Positions 19,592 to 49,593 of a stretch of 64,000 nucleotides of DNA are shown here, piece after piece. Both the position numbers and the translations under genes were made by a program. This DNA is from Deltaproteobacteria bacterium (lineage in GTDB: Bacteria; Desulfobacterota; Desulfobacteria; Desulfobacterales; SpSt-501): positions 739 through 64,738 of the forward strand of contig JACRCN010000044.1 in assembly GCA_016219005.1 (NCBI GenBank). Direction: 5' to 3'. Position 1 is the first letter of the stretch, and the number at the start of each line of letters is the position of its first letter. Below the pieces are notes generated by a model that was given only the letters and a program-made list of their open reading frames with translations, was not told where the DNA came from and ran no database searches.

Positions 19592-19764
19592 AGGTGTTCA
19601 GGCTGAAGGCTGAAGGCTGTAAAACATCTCGCGAAGCGCGAACCACGCCATTCATGACCTTCTCGGTTTCTACGACCTATGGTTCAATAACCAGCTTAAA
19701 TACCCGGCGACGTCTTGTGTGATCACGCATGGTTTGTCCCTGAAAGCCTTCAGTCTGCCTACCT
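19592..19764. repeat. Palindromic intergenic repeat, copy A (arms plus an enlarged internal segment)
   Basis: AGGTGTTCAGGCTGAAGGCTGAAGG ... GCCTTCAGTCTGCCTACCT. The flanks taacggctc / gaagcagttac match copy D. Confidence 0.7.
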
Positions 19765-19791
19765 GAAGCAGTTACCCCCCATGGCGTGAGC

Positions 19792-20079
19792 CTACACGCG
19801 AATATCGATCGCTTTTTTGACGGCTTCGTCTAGGCCGAATCCGCCCGGGCGGGACGCGCCGGTCGACGCCGCCGGCCCCGGCACGCCGGGCGCTTCGGCC
19901 GCAGCCTGTTCGCGGTCGTCTTCCGCGGCCGCGTCCCCTTCCGCCGGGTCCTCTGTGTCTTGGTGGAGGTGTTTGGCGAAAGCGCCACCCTCACCCTGGT
20001 CTTCACGCGGCTTGGCCCGCTTGACACGGTCAGCCCGCGTCACGGGCGTGACGTGTCTCGGAAATACCACCGGTTCCAT
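19792..20079 (-). CDS. Small acidic, low-complexity protein immediately downstream of fliA; unknown function
   Basis: 95 aa with an ATG and GGGGAGGGG 6 nt upstream. Rich in A/E/D/P/G. Ends ...GLDEAVKKAIDIRV. Confidence 0.5.
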   Translation of the reverse strand: MEPVVFPRHVTPVTRADRVKRAKPREDQGEGGAFAKHLHQDTEDPAEGDAAAEDDREQAAAEAPGVPGPAASTGASRPGGFGLDEAVKKAIDIRV

Positions 20080-20127
20080 CGTCGGCCCCTCCCCTGTCGC
20101 CCGCGCGGCATCCTCTCCCCAGGTTTG

Positions 20128-20895
20128 TCAGTCGTCGTCCAGCAGTTGTTCCTTCCGCAGCTTTTTCCGCAGTCGCATGATGGCTTGGGAGTGAATCTGG
20201 GACACCCGCGATTCCGTAATGTGCATTACTTCGCCGGTTTCCTTCATGTTCAGCTCGTCGAGATAATACAGCGACATCACCAGCCGCTCCTTCTCGGGCA
20301 GCTGCTCGATGGCCCGCGCCAAGCCGGATCTGAGCTCCCGCAGGCGCGTCTGGGACAGCGCATCCTCCTCGTTGTGGATCAGGAAGTTCATCAACTTTTC
20401 CTTCTCATCCCGAGAGGATAGACCGAGTTCCTCGAAACTGATGAAGGAGATGCTGGACATCTGTCGGGTGCGGTGCAGGTCTTCGAGGTCGATGCCGAGT
20501 TCCGCGGCCACCTCGACGTCTTCCACCTCCCGGCCCAGCCGCTGCTCCATCTTCTGGCAGGTCTGCTCGAGCTCGCGCAGCTTGCGCCGACTCGAACGGG
20601 ACAGGAAATCCCGCGAGCGCAACTCGCTCAGCACGGCCCCCTTGATGCGAAAAATCGCATAGGTCATGAATTTGTTGTCACGCTTCGGGTCGAAGCGGTC
20701 GACGGCCTGGATCAAGCCCATGACCCCCACGTTCATCAGATCTTCCACGTCGACGCTCGCCGGCAGGTGGTTCGCGATGCGCTGGACGATGCGCTTCACA
20801 TAGGGCAAATATTCATGGATCAACTTCTCGCTGGTCGCGGGTCGCTTCTTGGCCGGAGGCCGTGGTCGTGCAGTTGCCAGTTGCATGCGCATCAT
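20128..20895 (-). CDS. fliA: Flagellar sigma factor sigma-28
   Basis: Region 2 shows DLMNVGVMGLIQAVDRFDP..FMTYAIFRIKGAVL. Region 4 shows LPEKERLVMSLYYLDELNMKETGEVMHITESRVSQIHSQAIMRLR. Confidence 0.95.
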   Translation of the reverse strand: MMRMQLATARPRPPAKKRPATSEKLIHEYLPYVKRIVQRIANHLPASVDVEDLMNVGVMGLIQAVDRFDPKRDNKFMTYAIFRIKGAVLSELRSRDFLSRSSRRKLRELEQTCQKMEQRLGREVEDVEVAAELGIDLEDLHRTRQMSSISFISFEELGLSSRDEKEKLMNFLIHNEEDALSQTRLRELRSGLARAIEQLPEKERLVMSLYYLDELNMKETGEVMHITESRVSQIHSQAIMRLRKKLRKEQLLDDD

Positions 20896-20922
20896 GTTCT
20901 CCCGGTGACGGTGGTCCCCCGC

Positions 20923-21852
20923 CTACATGGGGGTGGTACGAACCAGATGGTGCCAGAAAAAGTTGGTGTTGCCCTTCGGCCGGCTGGAGGGCTTTGTCAT
21001 GGCCATCCGCCGGGCCAGGTCCATGAAGCAGCGGCTGGCCTTGGAATCGGGGTAGAGATCGCTCACCAGCCGCTGGCGTTTGACCCCGCGGGTGACCTTG
21101 TCGTCGTAGAGGACGCTGCCGAGGTAATCGATGTGGATGTCCAGAAAACGGTCGGTGACCAGGACGAGCTGCCGGAAGACGTCCTCGCCCTCCCGGGCAC
21201 TGGCCACCATGTTGACCAGCAGTTTGCAGCTTTTCTCCGCGTATTTCAGGGACAGCACTTTCATGAGGGCATAGGCGTCCGTGATCGATGTGGGCTCAGG
21301 CGAAACTACGACGACGATCTCGTGGGCCATCACGTTGAAATCCATGACGTTGGTGGAAATGCCGGCCGCCGTGTCGATCAGCAGGATGTCCACGTCGTCG
21401 ATGAGCCGGTCGAGGTCGGTGAGGAACTGCACCTTCTGGTCATTGGTCAGATGGGTGAGCTCCTGGATGCCGGAGGACGCCGGCAGGATGCGCATCTTCC
21501 CCGGTCCCTTCTCCAGGATATCGGCGATGGACTTCTCCCCGCGAATGACGTGCGAAATGTTGAATTTCGGCGCGATCCCCAGCAGCACGTCCATGTTTCC
21601 CAGGCCGAGATCGGCATCCAAAACGAGCACCTTCTTCCCGAGATTGCTGAAGGCGAACCCCAGGTTGGCGACGATGTTGGTCTTGCCGACACCCCCCTTG
21701 CCGCTGGTGATGGCGATCACCCGCGCGTGGGTTTTACGCTGGCGCGAGGTTTCGCCCGCATCTCCCAGCCCGTCGCGGCGCGGCAGAGGAATCACTTTTT
21801 TCGAGGGGTCTTTCACGATCATGATGCCAGAGTCTCCTCGCTGGGGATCCAT
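20923..21852 (-). CDS. flhG: MinD/ParA-family flagellar number regulator
   Basis: Deviant Walker A is IAITSGKGGVGKT, followed by VLVLDADLGLGN. It follows flhF. The ATG shares one nt with the flhF TGA (TGATG). Confidence 0.9.
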   Translation of the reverse strand: MDPQRGDSGIMIVKDPSKKVIPLPRRDGLGDAGETSRQRKTHARVIAITSGKGGVGKTNIVANLGFAFSNLGKKVLVLDADLGLGNMDVLLGIAPKFNISHVIRGEKSIADILEKGPGKMRILPASSGIQELTHLTNDQKVQFLTDLDRLIDDVDILLIDTAAGISTNVMDFNVMAHEIVVVVSPEPTSITDAYALMKVLSLKYAEKSCKLLVNMVASAREGEDVFRQLVLVTDRFLDIHIDYLGSVLYDDKVTRGVKRQRLVSDLYPDSKASRCFMDLARRMAMTKPSSRPKGNTNFFWHHLVRTTPM

Positions 21853-23264
21853 CACCGGTAGCCGGAAATGCGGGCGCGATCCCGCACGACCGCGCCGTTG
21901 TCGACTTGGTCCGGTTGATCCGGGCCGCAATTCCGACAGGGCAGGAACCGCCGGGACTCGGCCTCTGCCACCGTTGCGAACGATATGAGATTATCGGACT
22001 TGATCTTCCGGACCCACTTGCAGCCGGGCAGGTGGTAGAGCTCGGAATTACGGTTGGCGACAAAGCGCGCGGAGTTCGTGCGGCCGGACAGGGTAGTGCC
22101 GTGCCGTTCGTCGCCCGGGCGCTCGTTGCGGACGGAGTCGGCCGCGGCTATCGGCAACATGCGGTCGAGCAACAGCTCCAGGGGCTCCGCGACGAGGTCT
22201 TCCGGAACCCGCGGGCCGGTGCTCACCCACGACACCGGCAGCTGCGTCTGGACCATGAGGTTGAGGACTACGCCCCAGGTGCCGGCTTCATCGAGCCGGG
22301 TGAAAACCAGGCGGTGGATCGCCACCCCCTTCCACGCATCGACGACTCGCCGCAGGTCCTTCTCCCGGCTGGCCGCGCTGAGCACCAGGTGGATCTCCCG
22401 GGAAGGCAGCATGTCCAGGATCGGCCGCAGCGCGCTGCGCCGGTCCGCCTCGCCCGGGCTGATGCCCGGGGTGTCCACTATCAGGGTGTCGGCATCGCCG
22501 AGATCCGCCAGAGCCCGGCGGGCCTCCTCCGGGGATGTGGCCACCGCCAGGGGAACTCCGAGAATGGCGGCATAGGTGCGGAGTTGCTCGATGGCGCCGA
22601 TGCGCACATCGTCCAGCGTCAGGAGGGCCGGCGTGCGCTGCTGCCGCAGCCGCAAGTCGGCCGCGAGCTTGATCGCGGTGGTCGTCTTGCCCACGCCGGC
22701 GGGACCCACCAGCACGATCGCCCGCGGACGAGGAACAGCGTCGGCCCGCCGCAGTCCCATGTCCTGAAGGATACCGGCCAGCAGCGCCCGGAGGCGCTCG
22801 GTCCCGTACCGCTGGTCATAGCCGGGCAGCCGTTTGAGGTGATCGACCAGGTCGGTAGCGAGCTCGCGCTCGAGGTCCTGCGCCAGCAGGTGCTGATAAA
22901 GCTCCGCCAGCTCCGGCGCCGCGCCGGCCTCGGAGGCGGGTGCCTCGACGGGCCGGCGCCGGACAGCGAGCGATCGCAGGCTTTGATTCAAGGATTGGAA
23001 GAGGCCGCGCCGGCCGTGGGCGGTCTGCGGCGCGAGCCTTTCAGGGGCCGGGACCGGCGCGTAGCTGCCGGTGGCAGTGTAGGCCACCGAGTCGCTGTCT
23101 TTCGCAGCGGTGACCTCCACCCCCGACATCGGTCCGGCGCTAAATATCCCACGCCCGCTCCGGAGGCTGCGGGCGGTCAGGATCACGGCATTCGGACCGA
23201 ACTCGTCCTTAACCATCTTCAGAGCCGCCGTCATGGTCTTGGCTTCAAACCGTTTAATCTGCAT
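21852..23264 (-). CDS. flhF: SRP-type GTPase FlhF with an extra C-terminal Ada-like zinc-ribbon tail
   Basis: MQIKRFEAKTMTAALKMVKDEFGPNAVIL, then GPAGVGKTTT, DTPG and LVFTRLDE. The tail reads SELYHLPGCKWVRKIKSDNLISFATVAEAESRRFLPCRNCGP. Confidence 0.9.
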   Translation of the reverse strand: MQIKRFEAKTMTAALKMVKDEFGPNAVILTARSLRSGRGIFSAGPMSGVEVTAAKDSDSVAYTATGSYAPVPAPERLAPQTAHGRRGLFQSLNQSLRSLAVRRRPVEAPASEAGAAPELAELYQHLLAQDLERELATDLVDHLKRLPGYDQRYGTERLRALLAGILQDMGLRRADAVPRPRAIVLVGPAGVGKTTTAIKLAADLRLRQQRTPALLTLDDVRIGAIEQLRTYAAILGVPLAVATSPEEARRALADLGDADTLIVDTPGISPGEADRRSALRPILDMLPSREIHLVLSAASREKDLRRVVDAWKGVAIHRLVFTRLDEAGTWGVVLNLMVQTQLPVSWVSTGPRVPEDLVAEPLELLLDRMLPIAAADSVRNERPGDERHGTTLSGRTNSARFVANRNSELYHLPGCKWVRKIKSDNLISFATVAEAESRRFLPCRNCGPDQPDQVDNGAVVRDRARISGYR

Positions 23265-25356: not shown

Positions 25357-25414
25357 GCTGCTCACATCCTGGGAATCGATCGTGACGAGTCACCTTAAAA
25401 CCAGACCCTGACTC

Positions 25415-25430
25415 TGCATTTTCCATGCCG
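25415..25430 (-). promoter_or_regulatory. Sigma-54 promoter-like site upstream of flhA
   Basis: The minus strand reads CGGCAT-GGAAA-ATGCA with correct GG-N10-GC spacing. It lies ~60 nt upstream of flhA. Confidence 0.4.
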
Positions 25431-25886
25431 ATAGAGGGCTGGAATTCAGAATGCCTCGAATCTGCGGGCTTTTTCGCACATCGACCGTGTGGGCATGTAG
25501 ATACAAAGACGGTCCTGTGACGGCCTGCTGCGCGGGCATTGAGTACCGGTGGTGCCAGATTCCGGCCGGCGGCACATCTGGGGGCCTGCTGCGGGAACGC
25601 AACGCCACGCCGGTATGCGATCTTCGCGCCCGTTGGTCCGGCCGGGGAGGTCCGACAATATTTTGTCGGCGCCGAACGCCGGTGGGATGACGTGGTGAAG
25701 AAAATGGGGTCAGGGGTCATGGAATCCAGGGGCCAAGTGGAAGAACGCGGGAAGACCGTTTGAGACGCATCCGGGTTTTCGGGCGATTGCCCGATAGTCG
25801 CATTTCCAGAAAACATGGCGGGCACTAGACTTAAAATCTCTTCCTGGCATTTTTACGCGTGAACCCTTGAACCTTTGGCCCCTTGG

Positions 25887-26960: not shown

Positions 26961-26972
26961 GCGGTTTTTCTC

Positions 26973-27752: not shown

Positions 27753-27779
27753 GGGCTAATGTTCCTGTCGACGCGCGGG

Positions 27780-28049: not shown

Positions 28050-28088
28050 CGTCTGTTCCTTTCACCCGAAACGGTTTTGAAACCGCCT

Positions 28089-29636: not shown

Positions 29637-29638
29637 AT

Positions 29639-33889: not shown

Positions 33890-35857
33890 TCACGCGAACA
33901 TGTTGATGGTCGTCTGTCCGCCCAGGCCCCACCGGTAAGCGGCCTCCGGGCGGAGCCCTGCGCTGGTTTCGGAATCAGCAGGTGCAACGTCGCTGCCCGC
34001 ATGGCCCTTCCGGCCCGCGCCGGTCCGCGCCTGACGCCCCGGGTGCTGGCGGGGGTCGTCCGCAACCGCCACTTCGACCCGTTCCACCTGCATGCCCTGC
34101 TGCTGCAGGTCCGACTTGAGCTGGTGGATATTGCTTTCGATCATGTCCCGGACCGTCGGAAGCTCGGTCAGGATGCGCACGGTGACCTGCTGGTTGTCGG
34201 TCACGATCTGCAGGCGCACATGCCCGAGAAATTCCGGTTTGAGGTCGATCCGTATCTCGCCCTGATCGTTCTTCACGTGCGCGGCGGCGCGCTGCACGAT
34301 CTGGTCGAACACATCCGTCTTGACCGGTGCGGCCGCGGTGTCCCGGCCCTTGGCCGCCGCCGCGGCATCAGCGGGCTTGTCCGGGCTGCCGTCCGGCATC
34401 GCGAAGCTGCGTACGTCGCGCAGGGCCGCTTCGAAACGCAGGCTGGGCGAGGCGCCTTCCTCAGCGACGTTATCCGCCGTGGAAAGCGCCAGACCGCTCG
34501 TGGCTTTCTCGGCCGGCGACCGGGAGTCGTCCGAGACTTCCGATTGCGTATCCTCCACCTCGAAATTCCTTGGAAGCACGAAGCTGCCGTCCGGAGCCTG
34601 CGCCTTTGAAGAGACGGCTGTGCTTCGGAGGGTCTCCGCCGGTGGGGAAGCCGCGGGCGGCGCTGCGGGCATCATCCGCCCCGCGCCGGGGCCACGTTCA
34701 TCGGCAACGGGCCGGCCCCGATCTGAAAATTCATCGGCACGCGCCGCGGCATCGGCTTTGCCCACAGCGGCCTGGCTGCCCTTGGCGTCGAGCAGCACTT
34801 CGCTCGCTGCGCGGCCGGCACCGACGGGCAGGCCGTCATGCCGAGACCCGACGGCAGAAATCGGCCCCGCGCCGGACAAGCTGGCCGTTTCAAGCGGGAC
34901 TTTTTCCGCACCCCCGTCCGCGCTTGCCAACGCGGCGGCCCATCGGTCCCAGGCAATGGCGGGCAGAGCCTCCTGGATGTTTTCGAGCAATACAAGGAGC
35001 CGGCCAGGAAGGCCCGCCGGCTGGCTCTCGTTCGCACCCGCCTGCCATTGTTCCAACATCTGCCGCAAGCGGTCCAACTGGACGGCACTCTCAGCCGTGA
35101 GCGCTGCCGGGTTTTCCTGAAGCTGCTTCAGAAGATCTACGAGCGCGGCAAGATCCTCGGCGGCATCGCCCGCCTCGGTATCTGAGGCAATGGCATCGCC
35201 CTGATCCTCGACCGCGGCGGCGTTCGAGTCCGCAGCGGCGGCCAGGTTCTGAAGGATCTGCGCCAGCAGCACCCACACAGGTTGGCTTTCGGCATCGTTC
35301 GCCGGGCTGCCATGGGTCGCCTGGGTGTCGCTGTCATCGGCAGCACGGCTGCGGTCGGTCTCGTTCACGGCCCCTTCGCCATACGCCGGCGCGGAGTTGG
35401 CCGGCGCCTCGTCCTTTGCAGCGGCGGCAGCACGGCTGCGGTCGGTTTCTTTCTCGGCCTCTTCGCCATGCGCCGGCGTGCAGCTGGCCGGCGCCTCGTC
35501 CTTTGCAGCGGCGGCAGCACGGCTGCGGTCGGTCTCGTTCACGGCCCCTTCGCCATGCGCCGGCGCGGAGCTGGCCGGCGCCTCGTCCTTTGCAGCGGCG
35601 GCAGCACGGCTGCGGTCGGTCTCGTTCACGGCCTCTTTGCCACGCGCCGGCGCGGAGTTGGCCGGCATCTTGTCCTTTGCAGCGGCGGCATTGCGCAGCA
35701 TATCATGAAACGATCCCGGCCCCGTGGCCGCCGGCCGACGGAAGCCGCCGTTTGCGCCCGCGCGCAACATGCAGGCCGGAGTCGCGCCGCCTTTTGGGCC
35801 GGGGCCGGGGGTGTTGAGGCTCGTGCCTGGATCAAATCCGATATTAACTGGCAGCAT
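33890..35857 (-). CDS. fliK: Flagellar hook-length control protein
   Basis: 655 aa, A/P/E-rich and disordered. The C-terminal FliK domain shows GEIRIDLKPEFLGHVRLQIVTDNQQVTVRILTELPTVRDMIESNIHQLKSDLQQQGM. Located upstream of flgD. Confidence 0.8.
   Translation of the reverse strand: MLPVNIGFDPGTSLNTPGPGPKGGATPACMLRAGANGGFRRPAATGPGSFHDMLRNAAAAKDKMPANSAPARGKEAVNETDRSRAAAAAKDEAPASSAPAHGEGAVNETDRSRAAAAAKDEAPASCTPAHGEEAEKETDRSRAAAAAKDEAPANSAPAYGEGAVNETDRSRAADDSDTQATHGSPANDAESQPVWVLLAQILQNLAAAADSNAAAVEDQGDAIASDTEAGDAAEDLAALVDLLKQLQENPAALTAESAVQLDRLRQMLEQWQAGANESQPAGLPGRLLVLLENIQEALPAIAWDRWAAALASADGGAEKVPLETASLSGAGPISAVGSRHDGLPVGAGRAASEVLLDAKGSQAAVGKADAAARADEFSDRGRPVADERGPGAGRMMPAAPPAASPPAETLRSTAVSSKAQAPDGSFVLPRNFEVEDTQSEVSDDSRSPAEKATSGLALSTADNVAEEGASPSLRFEAALRDVRSFAMPDGSPDKPADAAAAAKGRDTAAAPVKTDVFDQIVQRAAAHVKNDQGEIRIDLKPEFLGHVRLQIVTDNQQVTVRILTELPTVRDMIESNIHQLKSDLQQQGMQVERVEVAVADDPRQHPGRQARTGAGRKGHAGSDVAPADSETSAGLRPEAAYRWGLGGQTTINMFA
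35340..35687 (-). repeat. 4 x 87-bp perfect-phase tandem repeat inside fliK
   Basis: Units start at 35340, 35427, 35514 and 35601 (gcagcacggctgcggtcgg...). They encode four 29-aa copies of DRSRAAAAAKDEAPA(S/N)SAPAHGEGAVNET. Confidence 0.9.
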
Positions 35858-36165: not shown

Positions 36166-36600
36166 TCAGGGCCGGGCGTGCTGTTGGGCGGCAGATTCGT
36201 CGGTGAACCGCTGCTCGCGGCCGGCTTCAGCCTTGAGGTACGACTGGATCTGCTTTTCCTTCAGCTTGTCGAGGATCTTGCGCTTTTTCACGGCCTCAAG
36301 CAGGGCCTGCCGCTTCTGCTCCACTTTGCGCTCGACCGCCGCGACACGCTTCATGTGCAGTTCGATGTCCAGCTTCAGACGTTCCAGGTAGGGGTAGTAC
36401 AGCAGCATGTCGTCGGCGCGGAAGCGGTCCCGCTGCTTCCGGTGCATGTCCCGCATGCACTGGCGGTGCGTGCTTTTGGCCTCCCGCAGAACAGTCTGGG
36501 CCGCGGCGAGTTCCTGGCGGGCGTCGGCCAGCGCTTTCTGACAACGCTCTTCGACGTGGCGGCGCTGAGTGAGGACGGTCTCGAGGCGGAAACGGAACAT
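36166..36600 (-). CDS. fliJ: Flagellar export chaperone/stalk protein
   Basis: 144-aa coiled coil: MFRFRLETVLTQRRHVEERCQKALADARQEL...YYPYLERLKLDIE. Located after fliI. Confidence 0.8.
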   Translation of the reverse strand: MFRFRLETVLTQRRHVEERCQKALADARQELAAAQTVLREAKSTHRQCMRDMHRKQRDRFRADDMLLYYPYLERLKLDIELHMKRVAAVERKVEQKRQALLEAVKKRKILDKLKEKQIQSYLKAEAGREQRFTDESAAQQHARP

Positions 36601-36648
36601 AGGGCCTTATCGGGTGAGCCTAAATGGCGCTATAGTGCTTAACATCGC

Positions 36649-36729
36649 AGGTAGGTGGACGGAAGACTGGAGGCTGAAGGCCAATACTGACCGCGCACGC
36701 CTCGCTCCTTCAGTCTATCCACCTTACCT
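36649..36729. repeat. Palindromic intergenic repeat, copy B (between fliI and fliJ)
   Basis: AGGTAGGTGGACGGAAGACTGGAGGCTGAAGG ... CCTTCAGTCTATCCACCTTACCT. The 3' arm touches the fliI stop codon. Confidence 0.75.
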
Positions 36730-38047
36730 AATCGAACAGCGCCTGCAGCTGCGCTCCGCTCTCGGCAAACGACACCCGCTCAGCGACGTCCTGTCTCAGG
36801 AAGCCGTTGATTCGGTCGATCATTTTGATCGCGTGGTCGATGCGCGGACTGCTGCCGGCCACATAGGCGCCGATGTTGATCAGGTCCTCCGCCTTGCGGT
36901 AGGTCGCCAGGGCCTCTTTCAGGCGCCCGGCGTTCTGCTTATGGCCCGGGTCCACGACGTCGTCCATGACGCGGCTGATGCTGGCGAGAACGTCGATCGC
37001 GGGATAGTGATTCTGCATCGCCAGCTCGCGGGTCAGGTTGATGTGCCCGTCCAGGATCGAGCGCGCCGCGTCGGCGATGGGCTCGTTGGTGTCATCGCCT
37101 TCCACCAGCACGGTGTAGAGTCCGGTGATGGAGCCGCGGCCGGCGCCGGTGCCGGCGCGCTCAAGGAGCTTCGGCAGCAGGGTAAACACCGAGGGCGTGT
37201 AGCCTTTCGTGGTCGGCGGTTCGCCGAGAGCCAGACCGATCTCGCGCTGGGCCATGGCGAAGCGGGTCACCGAGTCCATCATCAGGTTCACCCGGCGGCC
37301 CTGGTCCCGGAAGTACTCGGCGATGGCGGTGGCCACAAACGCCCCGCGGGTGCGGATCAACGGCAGCCGGTCGGAGGTGGCGACCACCACCACGGACCGG
37401 GCGAGCCCTTCCGGGCCCAAGTCCTTTTCGATAAAATCATTGACCTCGCGCCCCCGTTCGCCGATGAGAGCGATCACGTTGACGTCGGCGGCGGTGTTGC
37501 GGGCAATCATGCCGAGCAGGACGCTTTTGCCCACCCCGGAGCCGGCAAACACGCCGATGCGCTGACCGCACCCCACCGTGAGCAGGCCGTTGATGGCCCG
37601 TACCCCGAGATCCAAAGGTTCGTGGATCCGCCGGCGCTGCAGCGGGTTGATGGCGGGGCCATATAGGGGATATTCCTCGGTGGCGGCGAGCGGCCCCTGA
37701 TCGTCGATAGGATCCCCCAGTCCGTCGATCACGCGGCCGAGCAAGGCGCGGCCGACCCGCACCGTGGCCTTCTGCTGCCGGGCGATCACCCGGCAGCCGG
37801 GGGCAATGCCCCGGATCTCTTCGAGCGGCATCAGCAGCACGCGCTGGTCGCGGAAGCCCAGAGCTTCGGTCGCCAGCCGGCGGCTGCCCTCCCGGGTAAC
37901 GATATCGCACACCGCGCCCAGCCGGCAGGCGGGGCCGCATGACTCAACCACCAGGCCGACCACCTGCGTCACGTTCCCCTGCGCCTGGATCGGCTGCAGC
38001 GACTCCAGACAGAGGTGGTATTTGGCGAGGTCCAGCGCCACGCTCAT
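36728..38047 (-). CDS. fliI: Flagellum-specific ATPase
   Basis: Walker A is GVFAGSGVGKSVLLGMI. Walker B is RVNLMMDSVTRFA. Also ITGLYTVLVEGDD. Confidence 0.97.
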   Translation of the reverse strand: MSVALDLAKYHLCLESLQPIQAQGNVTQVVGLVVESCGPACRLGAVCDIVTREGSRRLATEALGFRDQRVLLMPLEEIRGIAPGCRVIARQQKATVRVGRALLGRVIDGLGDPIDDQGPLAATEEYPLYGPAINPLQRRRIHEPLDLGVRAINGLLTVGCGQRIGVFAGSGVGKSVLLGMIARNTAADVNVIALIGERGREVNDFIEKDLGPEGLARSVVVVATSDRLPLIRTRGAFVATAIAEYFRDQGRRVNLMMDSVTRFAMAQREIGLALGEPPTTKGYTPSVFTLLPKLLERAGTGAGRGSITGLYTVLVEGDDTNEPIADAARSILDGHINLTRELAMQNHYPAIDVLASISRVMDDVVDPGHKQNAGRLKEALATYRKAEDLINIGAYVAGSSPRIDHAIKMIDRINGFLRQDVAERVSFAESGAQLQALFD

Positions 38048-39758: not shown

Positions 39759-39807
39759 CGTATTGTTGTCCCGTCACGCCAACGAGGTGGATGTTTCGAA
39801 ATGGCTG

Positions 39808-41415: not shown

Positions 41416-41429
41416 GAGGTCCCCCCGAG

Positions 41430-41732: not shown

Positions 41733-41749
41733 AAGGATCTCCTCACTGG

Positions 41750-42609: not shown

Positions 42610-42654
42610 GTGGGTTCTCCTTTTCTCTGTTCCGCTGGTGGATCCATTACCAGG

Positions 42655-44103
42655 TTATATGACAGCAATTTCCGTACCATCACCCGGCCCCGGATCCTCC
42701 CGCGATGCGTTGCGGGTCGCATCAGCCGCCGCGCCGCTTTCCCGATATTCTTTGAGCTTGTTGCGCAGGGTACGGATGCTGATGCCCAGAAGCTCCGCGG
42801 CATGGGTGCGGTTCTGATGCACATGCGAGAGCGTTCCCATGATGAGGTCCCGCTCCATCTCCCACACAGTGATGCCGGTCCGAACGCTCCGCAGCGGTCC
42901 ACCTCCCGCGCCATTATCGGGCCCCGGCGGCAACTGCAGGTGCCGCGGCAGAACCGTGTCGCCGTCGGCCAGGAGCACGGCCCGCTCCAGCGTGTTCTCC
43001 AGCTCCCGCACGTTGCCTTTCCAGTTGTTCCGGGACAGCAGGTCGAGCGCATCTGCGGAAATGCTCGCAACCGCTTTGCCCGTGAAGGTGTTGAATTTCT
43101 CGAGGAAATGATGTGCCAGAAGCAGGACGTCACCCGGACGCTCCCGCAGCGGCGGGATTCTCAGCGGCACCACGTTGATCCGGTAGTAGAGATCCTCCCG
43201 GAAGTTGCCGGCGGCGACGGCCGTGGCGAGGTCGCGGTTGGTGACCACGACCACCCGCGCCTCGATAGGGGTCGGCATGCCGCCGCCGACGCGGTCGATC
43301 TCGCGCTCCTGGAGCACCCTCAGCAGCTTCGCCTGCAGGGCGAGCGACATCTCGCCGATCTCGTCCAGGACGATGGTGCCCTTGCGGGCCAGTTCAAACT
43401 TGCCGATCTTGCGCATGACGGCGCCGGTGAAGGCCCCCTTTTCATGCCCGAACAGCTCGCTCTCGGCCAGGGTATCCGGCAGGGCTGCGCAGTTCACCGC
43501 CACATATGGAGCTTCCGGATGCAGACCGTGGCGGTGGATATAGGCGGCCAGCAACTCCTTGCCCGTGCCGCTCTCGCCCTGGATCAGAACGGTGGCGGTG
43601 CTGCGGGCGACCTGGCGCGCCAGCGCCAGCACCTCGAGCAGGCGGCCGTCCTGGGTGACGAGCGTCTTGCGGCTGGACCGAGCGTCGGCGCTCTTGGGGC
43701 TGATCGCGGCCTCCCGCGCACCTTGCGTCTGCAAGGCTTTACGCACGCTCGTCTCCAAGCTCTCCAGCGCAAAAGGTTTGAGCAAATAGTCGCAAGCGCC
43801 GGCCTGCATGGCCTCGACGGCATTCTCGACGCTGCCGCCGGCGGTCATGACGATGACCGGAATGGGAACACCCAGGCGCCGCGCCGCCCGCAGCACGTCC
43901 AGTCCGGTCACATCGGGCATTTTGAGGTCGGTGACCACCAGGCTGAAGCTTGCGCGGGTGAGCCGCGCCAGGGCCTCGCGCCCCCCCGCGACGGCCTCCG
44001 CGGCAAACCCGCCACGCTGGAGCGCCTGGGTGAGAACGGACCGGATGGCGGGGTCGTCGTCGACGATCAATACGGACTGGGTTCCGGTGGTCAATGCATG
44101 CAT
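42655..44103 (-). CDS. Sigma-54-dependent response regulator (FlrC/FleR/NtrC-type)
   Basis: REC is VLIVDDDPAIRSVL...LVVTDLKMPDVTGLDVL. AAA+ shows VLIQGESGTGKELLA and GAFTGA; ESELFGHEKGAFTG is the GAFTGA loop. The C-terminal Fis-type HTH shows NRTHAAELLGISIRTLRNKLKEY. ATG at 44101-44103. Confidence 0.9.
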   Translation of the reverse strand: MHALTTGTQSVLIVDDDPAIRSVLTQALQRGGFAAEAVAGGREALARLTRASFSLVVTDLKMPDVTGLDVLRAARRLGVPIPVIVMTAGGSVENAVEAMQAGACDYLLKPFALESLETSVRKALQTQGAREAAISPKSADARSSRKTLVTQDGRLLEVLALARQVARSTATVLIQGESGTGKELLAAYIHRHGLHPEAPYVAVNCAALPDTLAESELFGHEKGAFTGAVMRKIGKFELARKGTIVLDEIGEMSLALQAKLLRVLQEREIDRVGGGMPTPIEARVVVVTNRDLATAVAAGNFREDLYYRINVVPLRIPPLRERPGDVLLLAHHFLEKFNTFTGKAVASISADALDLLSRNNWKGNVRELENTLERAVLLADGDTVLPRHLQLPPGPDNGAGGGPLRSVRTGITVWEMERDLIMGTLSHVHQNRTHAAELLGISIRTLRNKLKEYRESGAAADATRNASREDPGPGDGTEIAVI

Positions 44104-44174
44104 CGCTTTCAACAATGGCCGAGGCCCGCGGCCGCCGTCGGCTTGAACCGTAGTATTGGGCCAGAATCTGTTCA

Positions 44175-44189
44175 GCAAATAGCATGCCA
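44175..44189 (-). promoter_or_regulatory. Sigma-54 promoter-like site upstream of the FlrC-like regulator and flgB operon
   Basis: The minus strand reads TGGCAT-GCTAT-TTGCT, 72-86 nt upstream of the start codon. Confidence 0.55.
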
Positions 44190-44327
44190 CCCGGCATTGC
44201 GCGGTCGCCGCCGGCCCGGGCGAGAGCTGGCGCGGCGTGCGGCAAGTCCCCACTCCCTCATCCGGCCGAAATCGCCGTCAATGGTCGTGGATGCGGCCGT
44301 CACCCTCTTGACGCAGGTTTTTTGCAA

Positions 44328-44552
44328 CTAGAAGCTATCTCAAAAACAGCAGATCACAGCCGAGGGCAAGGCGCACGCCGATGAAAAAGCGCAGCCGCGG
44401 CACGTGGCGGCCATTTTTCAGAGGCGTGCAATGCCGCCAGCGACTGTCAGATGCATTCTTGAGACAGCTTCTGCTCGGGAAGCAATGATGAGTGGGGTAG
44501 AGAGAACTACGAAATACGCAATCGACGTGAAAGGGCAAGCCCAGCTACTGGT
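44328..44552. repeat. Non-coding repeat module X, copy 1
   Basis: Aligns by eye with 47916-48104. For example, cagcagatcacagccgagggcaaggcgcacgccgatgaa matches ...gcgcgcgccgatgaa, and gtgcaatgccgccagcgactgtcagatgcatt matches gtgcaacgccaccagcgcgctgtcagatgcatt. Indels break every reading frame. Confidence 0.7.
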
Positions 44553-44814
44553 TGAGGTTTCTTGATAACGCATTTTCAGGTGGTTTGCGCGTTTCGCAGT
44601 TAAACGTGATTTCAGATGGCGAAGGTGCAACAATATCGGATGCATCGGCAGTCGAAGCGGGAGACAGGATCTTCGAAAGGTGGCAAGGCGGGACGAGCCT
44701 CAGGATCGACGGCAACTTGCGCAGCTCCGGTGTCTCAGAGGGATGCTTACGCCCTCCCCCTTTGATCTTTCAGCCTTGAGCTTCGATGTCCATTGTCCCC
44801 GCTTTCAGCTTTCC

Positions 44815-45879
44815 TCAAGCCCCGCAGGGCCGCAGCTGGTGGCGCTTGATTTTCTCCACCAGGGTGGTGCGGTTGAGGTGCAGCAGCTTGGCGGCCTTGT
44901 TCTTGACCCACTGGGTCTTCTCAAGCGATTGCAGGATGAGCGTCTTCTCAAACTCCGTGACGGCGCTCGTGAGGCAGATGCCCTCCTCGGAGATCTCCAG
45001 CACGGTCGGCGCTTCGACCCCGCGCACACCGGTTTTAAGCTCCGGCGGCAGGTCGCGGCGCGTGATGGTGCCGGCAGCCTTGAGCACAACCATCCGCTCC
45101 ACCAGGTTCTTAAGCTCGCGTACATTGCCCGGCCAGCGGTGCGCCATCATGTCATCGAGGGCGTCTGCGCTCAGACCTTCCACCTGGCGGTGGTTCTTGC
45201 GGTTGGATTCCGCGAGGAAGTACGCCGCCAGGTGGGGGATGTCCTGGGTGCGCTCGCGCAGGGCCGGCAGCATCATGGGGATGACGTAAAGCCGGTAGAA
45301 GAGATCCTCGCGGAAATTGCCCTTCTGCACTTCCTCCGAAAGGTCGCGATGGGTGGCGGTGATGATCCGCACGTCCACCTTGATGGTCTTGGAACCGCCG
45401 ACCGGCTCGAACTCACCTTCCTCCAGCACCTTCAGGACCTTCACCTGAAGGTCGGCGCTCATGTCGCCGATTTCGTCCAAAAACACGGTGCCGCCGTCTG
45501 CCAGTTCGAACTTCCCGGGCTTGGTGGTGGTGGCTCCGGTGAAGGCGCCCTTCACATGCCCGAAGAGCTCGCTCTCCAAAAGGTTCTCCGGGATGGCGCC
45601 GCAGTTGATCGATATGAATGGCTTCGCACGGCGCCGGGATTTTTTGTGGATCGCCCGCGCCACCAGACCCTTGCCGGTGCCGGTCTCGCCGTTGATGAGA
45701 ATGGTGCTGTCGCAGTCGGCCACCTTCTCGATCAGCTCGAATATCTCGAGCATGCGGGAGCTGCGGCCGATCATATCGTCGAACCGGGCCGCTGTAGAGG
45801 AATTTTCCGCATCGACGGCTGGCGCGGAAAATAGATCCATTTGCTCTGAACCGGACTTGCGGGCAGCGGCCTTCTGCAC
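44815..45879 (-). CDS. Receiver-less sigma-54 enhancer-binding protein (AAA+ plus Fis-HTH only); candidate top-level flagellar regulator
   Basis: [39 protein letters not shown]...[15 protein letters not shown]...[11 protein letters not shown]...[19 protein letters not shown]. Only ~35 aa precede the AAA+ domain. GTG start with AAAGGAGA 5 nt upstream. Confidence 0.88.
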
Positions 45880-45986
45880 GGCGATCTCCTTTTCGGGTGC
45901 ACCCGCGCGCCAAACTCATCGCACGCGGGAGATTGCGGTCACGCGCAAAGCGCTCCGCTCGACAACGGCAACGCAACGGCAGTTGA

Positions 45987-46001
45987 GCAATATCCATGCC
46001 G
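45987..46001 (-). promoter_or_regulatory. Sigma-54 promoter-like site upstream of the receiver-less activator
   Basis: The minus strand reads CGGCAT-GGATA-TTGCT, ~110 nt upstream of the GTG start. Confidence 0.4.
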
Positions 46002-46537
46002 AAAGGACAACCGGGCTGAGCGCGCGCGCGCCGGCACAGGCAGGCCGGCACCGGGGCCTGCCTGCCGCACTCAAGGAGTGGTGGAGAGAGGAGATCGGTA
46101 CCTACAACATTTTGCGCAGGCCGCTTGATGCGCCCGCACGGGACAGGGCTGCAGACGGTCGTCGCCAGCGCAGGGCAAACCGATCGAGAGGACCTGAAAC
46201 GAGCTTAAAATCTTTGCGTTCTGCAAACAATAATACCGGGCCTCGGCGTCCGGATGGGCCGCGGCCGCAACAAACCTGCAGCCGCCACGCCCGCCCCGCT
46301 CGCTCCGCGGCAGGTGATCCTGACGCCCTTCTCGGTATCAGTTTGAAATCATACAAAATCCGCAAGAAACCAGCAGATAGAGCTTAGGCGCCCGCAGCTT
46401 CGATCCGGCTGCATGACCACTCAACCCGAACAACCCGGGAATTGTGCATTTTGCAAACGATCCGCTACATTTTGCAACAAGACTCCGGGTGCCCATGAAT
46501 ATCAACCGGTTAGCCAGAATCTTAGTGCCAAGCCGAA

Positions 46538-47278
46538 TTACATGGCTGCCCTGGCTTCCTCGATCGAGTGGGCTACCGTAATCTGGCTTGTTTCCTGAAA
46601 CCCTTTCAACTCTTCGCCCTGTTTAGCGTTGGCGACCAGCTTCACCGCGACGTTTGCTTTCTGGCACTGCTGCAACGCGGTGATGATCAGTTTGATCAGG
46701 GACACGTTGGTTTCAGATACCCCGCCCATGTCCAGGATCATCTTCTTCAACTGGGCGGCCGTCATGTCCTTAATTTTGACCTGGAGGCTGTTTTCGACTT
46801 CCACGCTGACCGGCCGCAGGACCTTTGCGGGCAGGGTCAGGACGACGACGTCCTCGACCTGGGTAAAGTATTTGCCCGGCTTCTTGTCATCCATCTCCTC
46901 CGTCTTCGGCTCGAGCGGCATGATCTTGCGCACGCGCTCGATCAGATCCTCGCCCTTGAACGGCTTCACCATGTAGTCGTTGATGCCCTTCTTGACGATG
47001 TTCATGACGTTGTCCTTGCCGGACTCGGCCGTCAGCATGATAACGGGGATGGCCTTCAAGGCATCGTCCCCCTTCAGCCGTTCGAGCATCTCCACCCCGG
47101 TCATAACCGGCATGGTGATGTCGAGGATGATCAGGCCCGGTTTGATTTTCGCGGCGGCGGCCAGCCCCTCCACCCCGTTTTCGGCCTCGGTGATTTCACA
47201 GTTATAAGCTTGAAACGCCTTCTTGACGATCATGCGGATCGTCTTGCTGTCGTCGACGGTCAACACTTTCAACGTCAT
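46538..47278 (-). CDS. Response-regulator receiver fused to a STAS (anti-sigma-antagonist-like) domain
   Basis: REC is VLTVDDSKTIRMIV...LIILDITMPVMTGVEML...DYMVKPF. The C-terminal ~110 aa (VVVLTLPAKVLRPVSVEVENSLQ...ILDMGGVSETNVSLIKLIITALQ) fits SpoIIAA/STAS topology by eye. Confidence 0.8.
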   Translation of the reverse strand: MTLKVLTVDDSKTIRMIVKKAFQAYNCEITEAENGVEGLAAAAKIKPGLIILDITMPVMTGVEMLERLKGDDALKAIPVIMLTAESGKDNVMNIVKKGINDYMVKPFKGEDLIERVRKIMPLEPKTEEMDDKKPGKYFTQVEDVVVLTLPAKVLRPVSVEVENSLQVKIKDMTAAQLKKMILDMGGVSETNVSLIKLIITALQQCQKANVAVKLVANAKQGEELKGFQETSQITVAHSIEEARAAM

Positions 47279-47296
47279 GGTGATCCTCCTGCATTA

Positions 47297-47782
47297 TTAA
47301 TTGGCAGCCTTGATGTAGACTTCCATCAGGGCGGAATGATGACTGTTGCGCACACCGTAGCGCTCGTGCCGATCCCACCCCTTGGATTCGGTTCTGAAAC
47401 TCTCGCCGAACGTGACCGAGGGGATGGAAAGCGAGCAGGTAAATCCGGAATCGCACAGACGAGACTTGAGGTCCCCGCCCACCATGTTGCAAACTTCGCC
47501 GATCACGTCGTGCACCTCCTCATCGCTGCCTATGTCATCCACCGTCATGCTCAGCATTGCCGCGGCTATTTCGCACGCGAACTGGCGGCTGACAAAGATG
47601 CTGACATTGCCCATGGCCGCGCCCGCAAACCCCACCGTGCCGACGATGTGCTTTCCCGTCGTAATGTTCTCGAAGTTCGGCGGCTCCTCCAGTTCAAGCG
47701 ACATGGAGAGCATGGTCTGGAACACTCCCTTCACCGCATTGGTGACGAAACCCTTCAAGTCAATCGTTTGAATCCCACCCAT
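47297..47782 (-). CDS. CheX/CheC-like phosphatase paralog
   Basis: VKGVFQTMLSM...GTVGFAGAAMGNVSIF...HDVIGEVCNMVGGDLK contains the E-x2-N motif. ATG 47782 (AAGGAG 9 nt upstream) is preferred; the track start is 47806. Confidence 0.7.
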   Translation of the reverse strand: MGGIQTIDLKGFVTNAVKGVFQTMLSMSLELEEPPNFENITTGKHIVGTVGFAGAAMGNVSIFVSRQFACEIAAAMLSMTVDDIGSDEEVHDVIGEVCNMVGGDLKSRLCDSGFTCSLSIPSVTFGESFRTESKGWDRHERYGVRNSHHSALMEVYIKAAN

Positions 47783-47846
47783 ATCCCCAATCTCCTTCCC
47801 ATGCATAAATGACGCCGACAGTGCAAATGTCTCGCACTCACAGCCC

Positions 47847-47869
47847 TTATCGGCAGGTTATCCCGATAA
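47847..47869. promoter_or_regulatory. Inverted repeat TTATCGG-N9-CCGATAA. The minus-strand half equals a perfect sigma-28 -10 box (GCCGATAA).
   Basis: Seen directly in the sequence. It lies ~65 nt upstream of the cheX-like start. No good TAAA -35 element occurs at the spacing used by the other two sigma-28-like sites. Confidence 0.3.
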
Positions 47870-47915
47870 CTGAAGATTTTTTTTTTACTACCCAGCTATC
47901 TGAAATCGCTCTTAA

Positions 47916-48104
47916 CTATAAGCCATCTCAAGAGCAGCAGATCACAGCCGAGGGCAAGGCGCGCGCCGATGAAGAGCCTATCCGCGCGGCAGGTGGTGAG
48001 CATATTTCAGGGGCGTGCAACGCCACCAGCGCGCTGTCAGATGCATTTTTTAAGATGGTTTCAACAAAATGCTCGGAATACGCGAAAGTGCATAGCTACT
48101 CAGG
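47916..48104. repeat. Non-coding repeat module X, copy 2
   Basis: See copy 1 (44328-44552). It is immediately followed by palindromic repeat copy C. Confidence 0.7.
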
Positions 48105-48184
48105 TAGATAGACTGAAGGCTGAAGGGCAATGATGATCTTGCAAACCATTTCCTTCAGGCTATTCACCTTCAGTCTGTCTACCT
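48102..48184. repeat. Palindromic intergenic repeat, copy C (best-preserved)
   Basis: AGGTAGATAGACTGAAGG (48102-48119) and CCTTCAGTCTGTCTACCT (48167-48184) are complementary at 17 of 18 positions, with a 47-nt spacer. It lies 36 nt downstream of the HDOD gene stop. Confidence 0.8.
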
Positions 48185-48219
48185 TGCAGTCTAGCGAAGA
48201 TGGTTGATCTTGAGTTCTG

Positions 48220-49068
48220 TCAACCCAGGAAGGAGCGGATGTCGTCGAACTCGGTCAGCATGGAAGCCATGATGGCGTCGACGGCACTCGTTTTGAGCTT
48301 CAGCAGGTCCCAGGCGGCCTTGTCCAGGGGCGGCATCTTATCGTCGCCGCCGGAGCCGAGAGCGAGCGCCCGGGTGAAAATGTCAGCCAGGTGCACGATG
48401 GAAGCCTCCATGGCAAACGTCCCGGCCGCGGCCGGGGCGTGGTGCCAGGCGATGGCGCCCACCAGCTTCGCCGGCAGGTTCCATTGCTCGGCCAGCAGCC
48501 GGCCGATGTCCGCGTGGGTGCACCCCAGCAGGTCCTGTTCGGCCGCCGACATCAGCACGCCCTCGGCCCGGACCCGCTCCGTGATCCGGGCAAACTCGTC
48601 CTGCAGGAACATCATCTCGACGATCTTGCCGATATCGTGCAGCAGCCCGGCGACGAAGAGTTCCTCCAGCTTGTCGTGCCGCAGGAAGTCCCCGATGGAC
48701 TTGGCACCGATCGCGCAGCCCAGTGAATGGTCCCAGAGCTGCTCCTGATCACGCCGGACTCTCGCGATACGTGCGGGGAACAGGTCCAGCACCGAGGTCG
48801 TCAGCAGCAGGTTGCGGATGGCGTCGAACCCGAGCAGCACGATGGCCCCGGTGACGGTGGAGACCCGCTGGGGGAAGCCGTAAAAGGACGAGTTGACAAG
48901 CTTGAGCAGCCGGGCCGTCAGCACCTGGTCGTCCGTGATGATGATGGAGAGATCCTTCGCGGACGCCCTGGGGTCGTTGACCAGCTCGGTGATCCGAAGC
49001 ACCGTACGCGGCAGGGTGGGAAGGTCCTCGACCTTGGCGATGATACGCCTGAGATCAGCTTCGCCCAT
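48220..49068 (-). CDS. Stand-alone HDOD-domain protein
   Basis: LPTLPRTVLRITELVNDP...ARLLKLVNSSFYGF...AGLLHDIGKIV...HADIGRLLAEQW. Confidence 0.85.
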   Translation of the reverse strand: MGEADLRRIIAKVEDLPTLPRTVLRITELVNDPRASAKDLSIIITDDQVLTARLLKLVNSSFYGFPQRVSTVTGAIVLLGFDAIRNLLLTTSVLDLFPARIARVRRDQEQLWDHSLGCAIGAKSIGDFLRHDKLEELFVAGLLHDIGKIVEMMFLQDEFARITERVRAEGVLMSAAEQDLLGCTHADIGRLLAEQWNLPAKLVGAIAWHHAPAAAGTFAMEASIVHLADIFTRALALGSGGDDKMPPLDKAAWDLLKLKTSAVDAIMASMLTEFDDIRSFLG

Positions 49069-49405
49069 GCCGAACCTTTTTCTTGCGACCGTGGCCTGCG
49101 AGGTGGCGGCCGGCCGCCTCCATGATCGCTGCCATCACCGGGTCGTCGAGCACGCCGGCAAAGCGGGCCCGCAACGCGTCGTCGGGGGCCTCCGCCGCCG
49201 GCAGGCCCACCCCCATGCCGGTAGACTCGTCACCCGCCGCGCCTCCCTTCACCGCAACCGCCGCAACCCCCCAGGATTTGAAGATGCGCAAGTGTTTTTC
49301 GCTGATGCGGCGGCCGGTCTCCAGGAGCAGTCGGTCCTGATGGGTGTAGACCGGCTGGGCCAGGGTCATGCCCGGCTTTACGTCGTCAAGCGTCAGGATC
49401 GGCAT
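49055..49405 (-). CDS. Small hypothetical protein co-transcribed with the HDOD gene
   Basis: 116 aa from ATG 49403-49405: MPILTLDDVKPGMTLAQPVYTHQDRLLLETGRRISEKHLRIFKSWGV. It resembles N-terminal modules of HD-GYP/HDOD-associated proteins. Overlaps the HDOD start by 14 nt. Confidence 0.5.
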   Translation of the reverse strand: MPILTLDDVKPGMTLAQPVYTHQDRLLLETGRRISEKHLRIFKSWGVAAVAVKGGAAGDESTGMGVGLPAAEAPDDALRARFAGVLDDPVMAAIMEAAGRHLAGHGRKKKVRHGRS

Positions 49406-49526
49406 GGGTCGCGGTTCATCCTTATTATGAATTCCCGCCAGGCAGCGGCAGGTCGCAAGCGGCTTTTCGTCGGAAATCACTCTTAACCACGAAATGCGCG
49501 AAGCACGCGAACGTGCGTAACGACTC

Positions 49527-49593
49527 AGGTGGCCCGGCTGGAGGCTGAAGGGCAATTTTGTTCCCGCATTTCTTTTCCTTCAGTCTATCAACC
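49527..49593. repeat. Palindromic intergenic repeat, copy D (5' arm degenerate)
   Basis: AGGTGGCCCGGCTGGAGGCTGAAGGGCAAT...CCTTCAGTCTATCAACC. The flanks taacgactc / ggagcagttgc match copy A. Confidence 0.7.

Follow-up and report, generated by a model that had tools for sequence, protein, structure and literature searches.

The 64-kb window analysed here, by which we mean the whole stretch of DNA from contig JACRCN010000044.1 of a Deltaproteobacteria bacterium, carries a flagellar gene cluster, and four copies (A to D) of a palindromic repeat lie in the gaps between its genes. All four are found on the + strand and in one orientation. An earlier note on this DNA had described them as repeats at flagellar operon junctions, all in non-coding gaps; the four copies could be read in the sequence at the places claimed, each of them is intergenic, and the gene assignments given at the time hold. 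Our results indicate that the repeats very probably belong to a dispersed mobile family.

Copy A (19582-19775) lies between a small open reading frame (ORF) downstream of the gene for a fliA-type sigma factor (20128-20895, - strand) and a DUF2802-like gene (19063-19563, -). Its left arm, GTAACGGCTCAGGTGTTCAGGCTGAAGGCTGAAGG, contains a Y-type unit and its right arm, CCTTCAGTCTGCCTACCTGAAGCAGTTAC, an X-like unit (see below for the two unit types), both read directly in the sequence, and its internal segment of about 125 nt is unusually long and holds two loop-motif fragments. Copy B (36639-36731) occupies most of the 127-nt gap between fliI (36728-38047, -) and fliJ (36166-36600, -). Its left end, TTAACATCGCAGGT, is near-complete, and its right end, ACCTTACCTAA, overlaps fliI and provides the TAG stop codon of this gene (36728-36730, - strand). 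Copy C (48092-48190) is the best palindrome, with doubled heptad units on both arms, and is placed 30 nt downstream of the stop of the HDOD gene (48220-49068, -; stop at 48220), in the gap towards the gene for CheX (47297-47806, -). The palindrome of copy D (49517-49604, GTAACGACTCAGGTGG…CCTTCAGTCTATCAACCGGAGCAGTTGC) is located in the divergent region between the operon of a 116-aa protein and HDOD and the flagellin gene (49920-50753, +), 142 nt upstream of the sigma28-type flagellin promoter. Copies C and D have a one-sided tail of about 45 nt in common, found at 48040-48091 (+, …CGGAATACGCGAAAGTGC) in copy C and at 49472-49516 (+) in copy D, where tail and palindrome together form a 133-nt block. 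By BLAST and alignment, the tail of copy C is related to that of copy D and to tails at three loci in other genomes (L045, L127 and L191).

The similarity between the copies goes beyond chance. The right-arm core CCTTCAGTCTNTC, with at most one mismatch, occurs 5 times in the window compared with 0.20 expected, and none of 100 shuffled sequences reached 5; GGCTGAAGG occurs 9 times compared with 0.99 expected. A repeat search of the window regained the family as groups D6, D12 and D14, where D6 aligns 48064-48168 with 49489-49593 at 74%. Additionally, a hidden Markov model (HMM) of the arm, trained on 140 foreign copies, matched only the four elements A-D in 64 kb at E<0.01, and in copy A the matches are 19582-19615 (-) and 19742-19769 (+). 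A weaker fifth trace previously reported near 44540-44600 is real, but it begins earlier and is decayed (44503-44600, +). It consists of a tail (AACTACGAAATACGC…), a degenerate left arm GCTACTGGTTGAGG and the loop motif TTGATAACGCA, and the 15 nt of AACTACGAAATACGC match copies in relatives exactly in the alignment, while heptads, a right arm and an arm HMM match are all missing from it. The eroded end of a further copy might be present at 46474-46493 (-), where ACCCGGAGTC stands beside TTGTTGCAAAATG; this candidate is weak and suggested by position only, and an intact right arm is found at exactly this junction in the relatives L190, L191 and L122. In a scan of the whole window no Rfam family reached the gathering threshold, and a permissive Rfam scan of 47900-49700 gave only chance matches to miRNA hairpins (E 0.18 or worse). 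A scan of the window for tRNA and tmRNA genes found none.

The anatomy of the element was derived from 140 aligned arms, which give the consensus …CCTTCAG[C/T]CT-N4-ACCTGAGTAGTTAC and show sharp ends, as conservation drops immediately past GTTAC. The outermost part is a fully paired stem of 14 bp, GTAACTACTCAGGT / ACCTGAGTAGTTAC. The conserved flanks noted before in copies A and D (gtaacgRctcagg and gRagcagttRc) are present and represent this outer stem, so the copies extend slightly further than first described. Inward of the outer stem lies an asymmetric, mostly unpaired internal loop where an X unit stands opposite a Y unit, followed by an inner stem of one to four CTGAAGG / CCTTCAG heptads and then by a variable loop. 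In copy C the arms are indeed complementary at 17 of 18 positions, and the loop start GG(G)CAAT proposed for the family holds in copies B, C and D. In the lineage of the window organism the loop carries a TGATC..GCA motif, which sets the orientation. The repeated unit is 17 nt long, GGT-N4-AGRCTGAAGG. In the X unit (GGT-AGAT/GGAT-AGA) the N4 module is AGAT or GGAT, i.e., the unit contains a GTAG or GTGG motif (the GT[AG]G head), and in the Y unit (GGT-GTTC/GTTT-AGG) it is GTTC or GTTT (GTGTTY).

The number of heptads varies between copies, and local expansions of related 7-9-mers occur, as with GGTGGAAGG ×4 at locus L009. The heptad itself also varies as CTGRAGG (36664-36680 and 49535-49551 in the window). 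CTGRAG is the site of Eco57MI-type (CTGAAG / CTGGAG) type IIS/IIG restriction-modification enzymes, which may well be a coincidence, as CCGAAGG and GTAGAAGG variants are found too.

RNA folding gives energies from -26 to -63 kcal/mol for the four copies. Copy A folds at -63 kcal/mol (z -3.2), copy B at -35.8 kcal/mol on the + strand and -41.5 on the - strand (z -3.3 and -4.2), and copy C at -42.6 and -42.8 kcal/mol (z -6.1 and -6.6). The z-scores of A, B and C thus range from -3.2 to -6.6, whereas the fold of copy D is weak, with -30.8 kcal/mol on the + strand and -26.1 on the - strand (z -1.5 and -0.9). None of the four contains a U-tract on either strand when the sequence is read, in agreement with the earlier description.

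The two arms of the element are not simply mirror images of each other. Among 44 elements anchored at both outer ends, 28 combine an X unit with a Y unit and 6 combine two X units, and Y/Y combinations were not found (0). The GT[AG]G head (GGTAGAT or GGTGGAT) faces a non-complementary Y unit in 28 of 44 elements, although the head lies inside the outer stem and other N4 variants exist. In only 8 of 78 cases do the N4 modules of both arms complement each other, compared with 7.3 expected by shuffling, and covariation between arms was looked for at the adjacent R/Y position and not found. Since neither the N4 modules nor this position covary, the identity of the units is maintained beyond what pairing alone would need. 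A plain palindrome or RNA-structure model was considered as the whole account of the element and was rejected on this ground. Recognition of the X and Y units by a protein would be more likely than selection on RNA stability alone, as unit identity, and not mere pairing, is what has been kept.

To follow the family beyond the window, a 596-Gb genome collection was scanned with the pattern AGGCTGAAGG-N15-45-CCTTCAGNCTNNNNACC, which has about 22 specified bases and for which we estimate about 2 chance matches in the collection. At least 120 stretches matched. The counts that follow refer to the matches listed, with loci taken as 8-kb blocks around them and phyla assigned by record title. Nitrospirota account for 45 loci and Desulfobacterota for 52, the latter including Geobacteraceae, Desulfobacterales, Desulfospira, Desulfocapsa, Syntrophaceae and others. 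Fewer loci come from Desantisbacteria, Planctomycetota, Nitrospinota, Lentisphaerota, Chloroflexota, Patescibacteria and unclassified metagenome-assembled genomes (MAGs), and one locus is from the complete genome of an isolate, Desulfosarcina variabilis. The GC content of the host loci spans 29-74%. Full arms are common to the Nitrospirota and Desulfobacterota copies, and copy C of the window and copy L111 from Nitrospira agree in 26 of 28 positions of the arms.

A single element per 8-kb locus was seen in 115 of 120, and likewise 115 of 120 were intergenic, with 78 between tandem genes, 13 between convergent and 10 between divergent ones according to crude ORF calls. The core starts at a median of 18 nt past the upstream stop codon, so that the outer arm abuts or overlaps the stop, and in 55 of the 78 tandem pairs the core is closer to the stop than to the next start. 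The neighbouring genes are unrelated and encode histidine kinases, ABC transporters, heptosyltransferases, RuvB, NadE, DapA/DapB and UreD, of which NadE, DapA/DapB and UreD are also found between paired elements. All-vs-all clustering of 1637 ORFs from the 120 loci returned only ubiquitous families or local synteny groups, with no enrichment of a transposase-like family, and four unannotated ORFs neighbouring elements had no Pfam match. No match was found by BLAST against plasmids, and viral contigs gave 7 matches only, with no obvious vector.

In Nitrospira, elements occur at one orthologous junction across several species, upstream of ruvB (L027, L070, L074 and L117) and between ureD and nadE (L028 and L096). 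The copies at these junctions have a common truncated left end, …ggcaacat|AGGCTGAAGG, and differ in their internal composition of heptads and units. This suggests that copies persist through speciation in Nitrospira while their interiors are reshuffled.

FliI homologues assign the window to an uncultured clade, and the named relatives are mostly labelled Desulfobacterales MAGs. The flagellar clusters of seven relatives were compared with the window, as were 63 metagenomic HDOD loci. Copies B, C and D are all unconserved in relatives with flanking proteins of 93-99% identity. Copy B is missing from the gap between fliI and fliJ in L190, L122, L191 and L123-125. In L190 (FliI 97%) the two genes are 5 nt apart without a copy, L122 and L191 (FliI 95%) have a different palindrome, ACAGGCTGTTGAAAAAC…GTTTTTCAACACCCTGT, in the gap, the 88% relatives have a gap of 33-70 nt without an element, and the 85% relative has a half-element only. 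No copy is found downstream of HDOD at site C in any relative examined, including those with 92-93% identity, and the 75-78% relatives have a sigma28-type cheX promoter directly behind HDOD. Site D is empty in L147 and L128 (HDOD 97% and 93%), which align collinearly with the window except for the missing 133-nt block 49472-49604. As site D is also empty in more distant relatives, the absence is ancestral. A rearranged copy is present at the matching point in L150 and L173 (98-99%) and in L190.

Relatives also carry copies where the window has none. Alignment shows a 109-nt copy between flgC and fliE in L122 and L191, two genes that are separated by only 17 nt in the window and in L190. Another copy precedes the sigma54-activator gene in L190, L191 and L122, and the window retains no more than an eroded end there. 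With the arm HMM, 3 elements per 11-21 kb were found in L122, L190 and L191 (FliI 95-97%) and zero in the FliI 85-88% loci L123-126. Among HDOD loci of at least 74% identity a copy was found only in L150 and L173 (98-99%), and none was found in the more distant HDOD loci (44% identity or lower, 180 kb). Within the window organism's own family the element is therefore present in the closest clade only. Such behaviour is that of a recently expanding mobile repeat and not of a conserved regulatory site, and the copies at the flagellar genes are recent passengers. The suggestion that the repeats are REP/MITE-like and of modular or mobile origin is thereby borne out, as they are dispersed, modular and polymorphic in presence or absence among close relatives.

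The comparison with relatives also bears on the possibility that the repeats are flagellum-linked cis-regulatory hairpins or binding sites, which would tune fliI against fliJ, HDOD/cheX and flagellin either at the level of RNA processing or stability or by means of a common regulator. The window taken by itself invites such a reading: four to five copies are packed into 30 kb of one cluster in a single orientation, copy B sits precisely between fliI and fliJ, reaching into the stop codon of fliI, the copies form strong hairpins on the transcribed strand, and the orientation bias seen elsewhere (given below) hints at general RNA-level selection. However, copies B, C and D are unconserved even beside 93-99% identical neighbours, the nearest relative manages with fliI and fliJ 5 nt apart, relatives place their copies in other gaps, and the clusters of the 74-88% relatives have none. 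The family is overwhelmingly found beside non-flagellar genes, and the sigma28- and sigma54-type promoters of the region fall outside the elements. We consider a flagellar regulatory role very improbable. The placement at flagellar junctions with a common flagellar regulator, proposed earlier, is thus not supported, in view of at least 120 matches in several phyla beside unrelated genes and of the lack of conservation of B, C and D. Dedicated processing hairpins of flagellar mRNAs are not supported either, given the same non-conservation and the different gaps used in relatives. The arm search of other genomes, which had been proposed as the check on flagellum specificity and was run here, returned copies scattered beside unrelated genes. 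The hairpins may still have a generic effect on flagellar mRNAs.

The promoters themselves deserve a short description. A near-consensus sigma28 (FliA) promoter is found at 49746-49774 (+), TAAAGTTT-N11-GCCCGATAA, about 146 nt upstream of the flagellin start, and similar TTTAG…GCCGATAA sites precede cheX in the 75-78% relatives (L134-L144). A 60-nt segment is duplicated with 92% identity at 44326-44385 and 47914-47973, upstream of a response-regulator/sigma54-activator gene (42655-44253) and of cheX (47297-47806), respectively. On the - strand this duplicate reads GGCG[T/C]GCGCCTTGCC, with the GG-N10-GC spacing of a sigma54 -24/-12 promoter.

The boundaries of the inserted copies are informative about how the family moves. 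Neither of the two clean filled/empty pairs (the 109-nt flgC-fliE copy and the 133-nt copy D) shows a target duplication. The flgC-fliE insert begins at the X unit with its outer arm missing, and copy D carries the 45-nt one-sided tail. These pairs matter for the view that the repeats are miniature inverted-repeat transposable elements (MITEs) derived from an insertion sequence (IS), in which GTAAC…GTTAC would be the terminal inverted repeats of a deleted IS, the inverted ends in question being GTAACTACTCAGG, moved by its DDE transposase in a cut-and-paste or copy-paste manner on double-stranded DNA. Sharply delimited termini, with conservation stopping right after GTTAC, a size of 60-190 nt, presence/absence polymorphism and a patchy spread across lineages that fits horizontal transfer would all agree with a MITE. 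The TA could even be read as a duplicated target, G-TA-[ACTACTCAGG…CCTGAGTAGT]-TA-C, which would fit IS630/Tc1-like elements and is indistinguishable from a palindromic end. The consensus ends are GTAACTACTCAGGT / ACCTGAGTAGTTAC, yet the two inserted copies with known boundaries are one-ended or tailed on one side, and they lack a target duplication. Furthermore, the arms systematically consist of two unit types and are not true inverted repeats, the heptad number varies as in REP/BIME/BOX elements, no long partner with the same ends was found in the loci examined, and no convincing far-apart arm pairs were seen. A MITE origin is therefore unlikely in our judgement, but it is the main rival of the REP-like reading.

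A third explanation takes the repeats as attC-like sites of an integron. Here GTAAC/GTTAC would represent the R''/R' boxes, the unpaired central spacer would correspond to the X/Y bubble and the variable terminal structure to the loop, and copies C and D would bracket a two-gene cassette. The ends do contain AAC…GTT, the elements have an unpaired bubble and a variable loop, copies C and D have flanks in common and enclose the genes of the 116-aa protein and HDOD at a distance of 1425 nt from each other, and chromosomal integrons are common in the host phyla. But the 116-aa and HDOD genes are in the same place in relatives that have neither C nor D, so the interval between these copies is not a cassette. 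Moreover, the elements are singletons at 115 of 120 loci beside housekeeping genes, without arrays among the matches listed, the R' box would read GTTACNN and not GTTRRRY, the outer stem of 14 bp is fully paired, and no integrase is present among the window proteins scanned. The attC reading was rejected on the dispersal and on the C-D interval, and we see next to no chance that it is correct.

Collectively, the evidence makes it very likely that the repeats are a non-autonomous mobile palindromic family resembling repetitive extragenic palindromic (REP) sequences, REP doublets forming hairpins (REPINs) and bacterial interspersed mosaic elements (BIMEs), which colonises intergenic DNA, typically just past stop codons. 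New copies might arise from a single-stranded form of the hairpin, through an enzyme that acts in trans and recognises the asymmetry of X and Y. The most likely candidate for this enzyme would be an HUH Y1 transposase of the REP-associated tyrosine transposase (RAYT) type, given that the head is GT[AG]G, that the target is not duplicated and that one-ended copies are inserted. RAYT enzymes copy REP-type elements by way of single-stranded hairpins. Transcripts of the flagellar operons (- strand) would contain the copies as strong hairpins, with energies of -26 to -43 kcal/mol, and these may incidentally protect the upstream mRNA from 3' exonucleases or affect neighbouring cistrons. In E. coli, a REP hairpin that lies at a stop codon or a few nucleotides from it, which is the position of copy B at fliI, can stabilise the upstream mRNA or perturb termination and downstream translation. 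As the window copies are unconserved, any such effect on the flagellar genes would be incidental. Some copies, such as B between fliI and fliJ, may have been co-opted.

Several points weigh against the REP-like reading. Our phmmer search with an IS200 TnpA query found no Y1-transposase-like ORF in 1.3 Mb of loci, covering blocks of 8-21 kb around the matches, and the window proteins scanned are flagellar, chemotaxis, regulatory and glycosylation proteins, with no transposase among them. No linked RAYT gene was seen, so the link to RAYT is by resemblance. Classical REPs are 20-40 bp long with loops of 3-6 nt and are usually species- or genus-specific, and the present elements differ from them by their 60-190 nt, large loops and presence across phyla. 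Thus, while they are short extragenic palindromes with many dispersed copies (at least 120 loci, in units longer than those of classical REPs), they are not restricted to a species or genus with vertical inheritance, as arms occur in Nitrospirota, Desulfobacterota and others. Parts of the distribution might also be less secure than the rest: the Planctomycetota matches lack the outer stem, those in Gemmataceae are the heptad hairpin alone and may not be true members, and as most genomes are MAGs, single matches in rare phyla could be binning errors. The orientation from X to Y along transcription, seen in 13 of 16 tandem pairs and likewise in window copies A and D, is based on these 16 cases and on crude ORF calls. 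Finally, the copies may, as a side-effect, influence the regulation of fliI/fliJ or of the HDOD operon.

The family appears to be undescribed, which we state provisionally, as no Rfam match was obtained and an incomplete literature search found no description. Searches with the heptad strings gave no match, and those on REP, MITE, Geobacter and Nitrospira topics gave no paper describing the family. It is not contained in the GTAG/CGTC REP survey, the RepRanger papers or the supplements on multicopy sequences in G. bemidjiensis.

A more far-reaching view, which we find possible but rather doubtful, takes the copies as one sequence-conserved REP-like family over at least two phyla and hosts of about 30-74% GC, with a fixed X/Y architecture, stems built of heptads, the GT[AG]G head and an orientation that tends to follow transcription. 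Such a family would imply either a conserved partner acting in trans, which has accompanied the repeats from phylum to phylum, such as a RAYT-like single-stranded DNA transposase or a host nucleic-acid-binding protein, or a general RNA function at 3' ends and between cistrons that is under selection.

Other repeats were found in the same gaps of the relatives. A second foreign palindrome family, GACGACTTTGTAAAAAGC…GCTTTTTTCGAAGTCGTC, is about 115 nt long and is at times nested inside the CTGAAGG element, and the ACAGGCTGTTGAAAAAC…GTTTTTCAACACCCTGT family is about 150 nt long. Palindromes of these further families were located in L122 and L191 (11321-11470 in both), L150 (about 570-720), L173 and L127 (about 2560-2650), and neither family was present when searched for in the window. 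The gaps shared by several mobile repeats are thus hot spots. In L190 (ena:ERZ25039459:contig_40186), the closest relative, with its 5 nt between fliI and fliJ, HDOD is called as 149 aa compared with 282 aa in the window, cheX and RR-STAS genes are missing, and the contig ends 120 nt past fliI, which suggests repeat-mediated rearrangement or assembly breaks in the cluster.

Additional features of the window were seen away from the repeats. The FliK-like gene (33890-35857, -, Flg_hook domain) contains 4.1 tandem copies of an 87-nt unit at 35338-35690 with 92% matches, so that the hook-length control protein contains an in-frame repeat of 29 aa. It has 655 aa compared with 558-613 aa in relatives, and the length of this ruler protein may thus vary with the number of repeats. 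Flagellin is followed at 50879-51665 by homologues of FlbT and FlaF, two regulators of flagellin translation. After these, a block at 51786-63842 has a GC content at third codon positions of about 0.6 compared with 0.8-0.9 elsewhere, and its products are 1821-aa and 668-aa tetratricopeptide repeat (TPR)/glycosyltransferase proteins, an epimerase, two radical-SAM proteins and a methyltransferase. The block is probably a flagellin glycosylation island, and it was possibly acquired horizontally.

For the annotation of the window, our results mean that the four hairpins are dispersed repeats and not flagellar regulatory sites. They may also account for the breaks or rearrangements of the cluster in assemblies of related genomes. 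For a REP-like element, the family has an unusually wide distribution. The conserved asymmetry of X and Y and the clean insertion polymorphisms provide a handle for the copying enzyme in Nitrospira and in sulfate- and metal-reducing Desulfobacterota, and the repeats could serve as strain-typing markers in uncultured groups of Nitrospira and Desulfobacterota.

Among known repeat systems, the family most resembles REP/REPIN elements and the BIMEs of E. coli. Like these it is extragenic, present in many dispersed copies, hairpin-forming and expected to be co-transcribed, and is usually found just downstream of a stop codon; it has one arm with a GTAG/GTGG motif that may be partly unpaired, shows no target duplication in the two pairs and is modular with many decayed or partial copies. 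The pairing of two unit types in inverted orientation corresponds to that of Y and Z in BIMEs. Unlike REPs of 20-40 bp, however, it measures 60-190 nt, with loops of 15-45 nt, an extra outer stem of 14 bp, inner stems built of 7-nt tandem units and no linked RAYT gene found, and while REPs are usually confined to the species or genus level, the same sequence family is here spread over at least two phyla with hosts of 29-74% GC.

Similarities are also seen with the Correia elements of Neisseria, the ERIC/IRU elements of enterobacteria and the RUP/BOX elements of Streptococcus, which are palindromes of about 100 nt between genes that are transcribed as long hairpins and are polymorphic in presence or absence between strains, BOX also being modular. 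In families of this type, effects on mRNA processing and stability are incidental and locus-specific. A duplicated TA target and true terminal inverted repeats are features of Correia and ERIC elements, whereas the present family shows no duplication and has two arm types, and the families named here are each confined to one genus or family. The heptads bring to mind the short tandemly repeated repetitive (STRR) heptamers of heterocystous cyanobacteria, which are intergenic arrays of 7-nt units whose copy number varies by slippage, comparable to the one to four CTGAAGG units and the fourfold GGTGGAAGG at L009. STRRs are plain tandem arrays, however, and the inverted arms, outer stems and loops described here set the present family apart from them.

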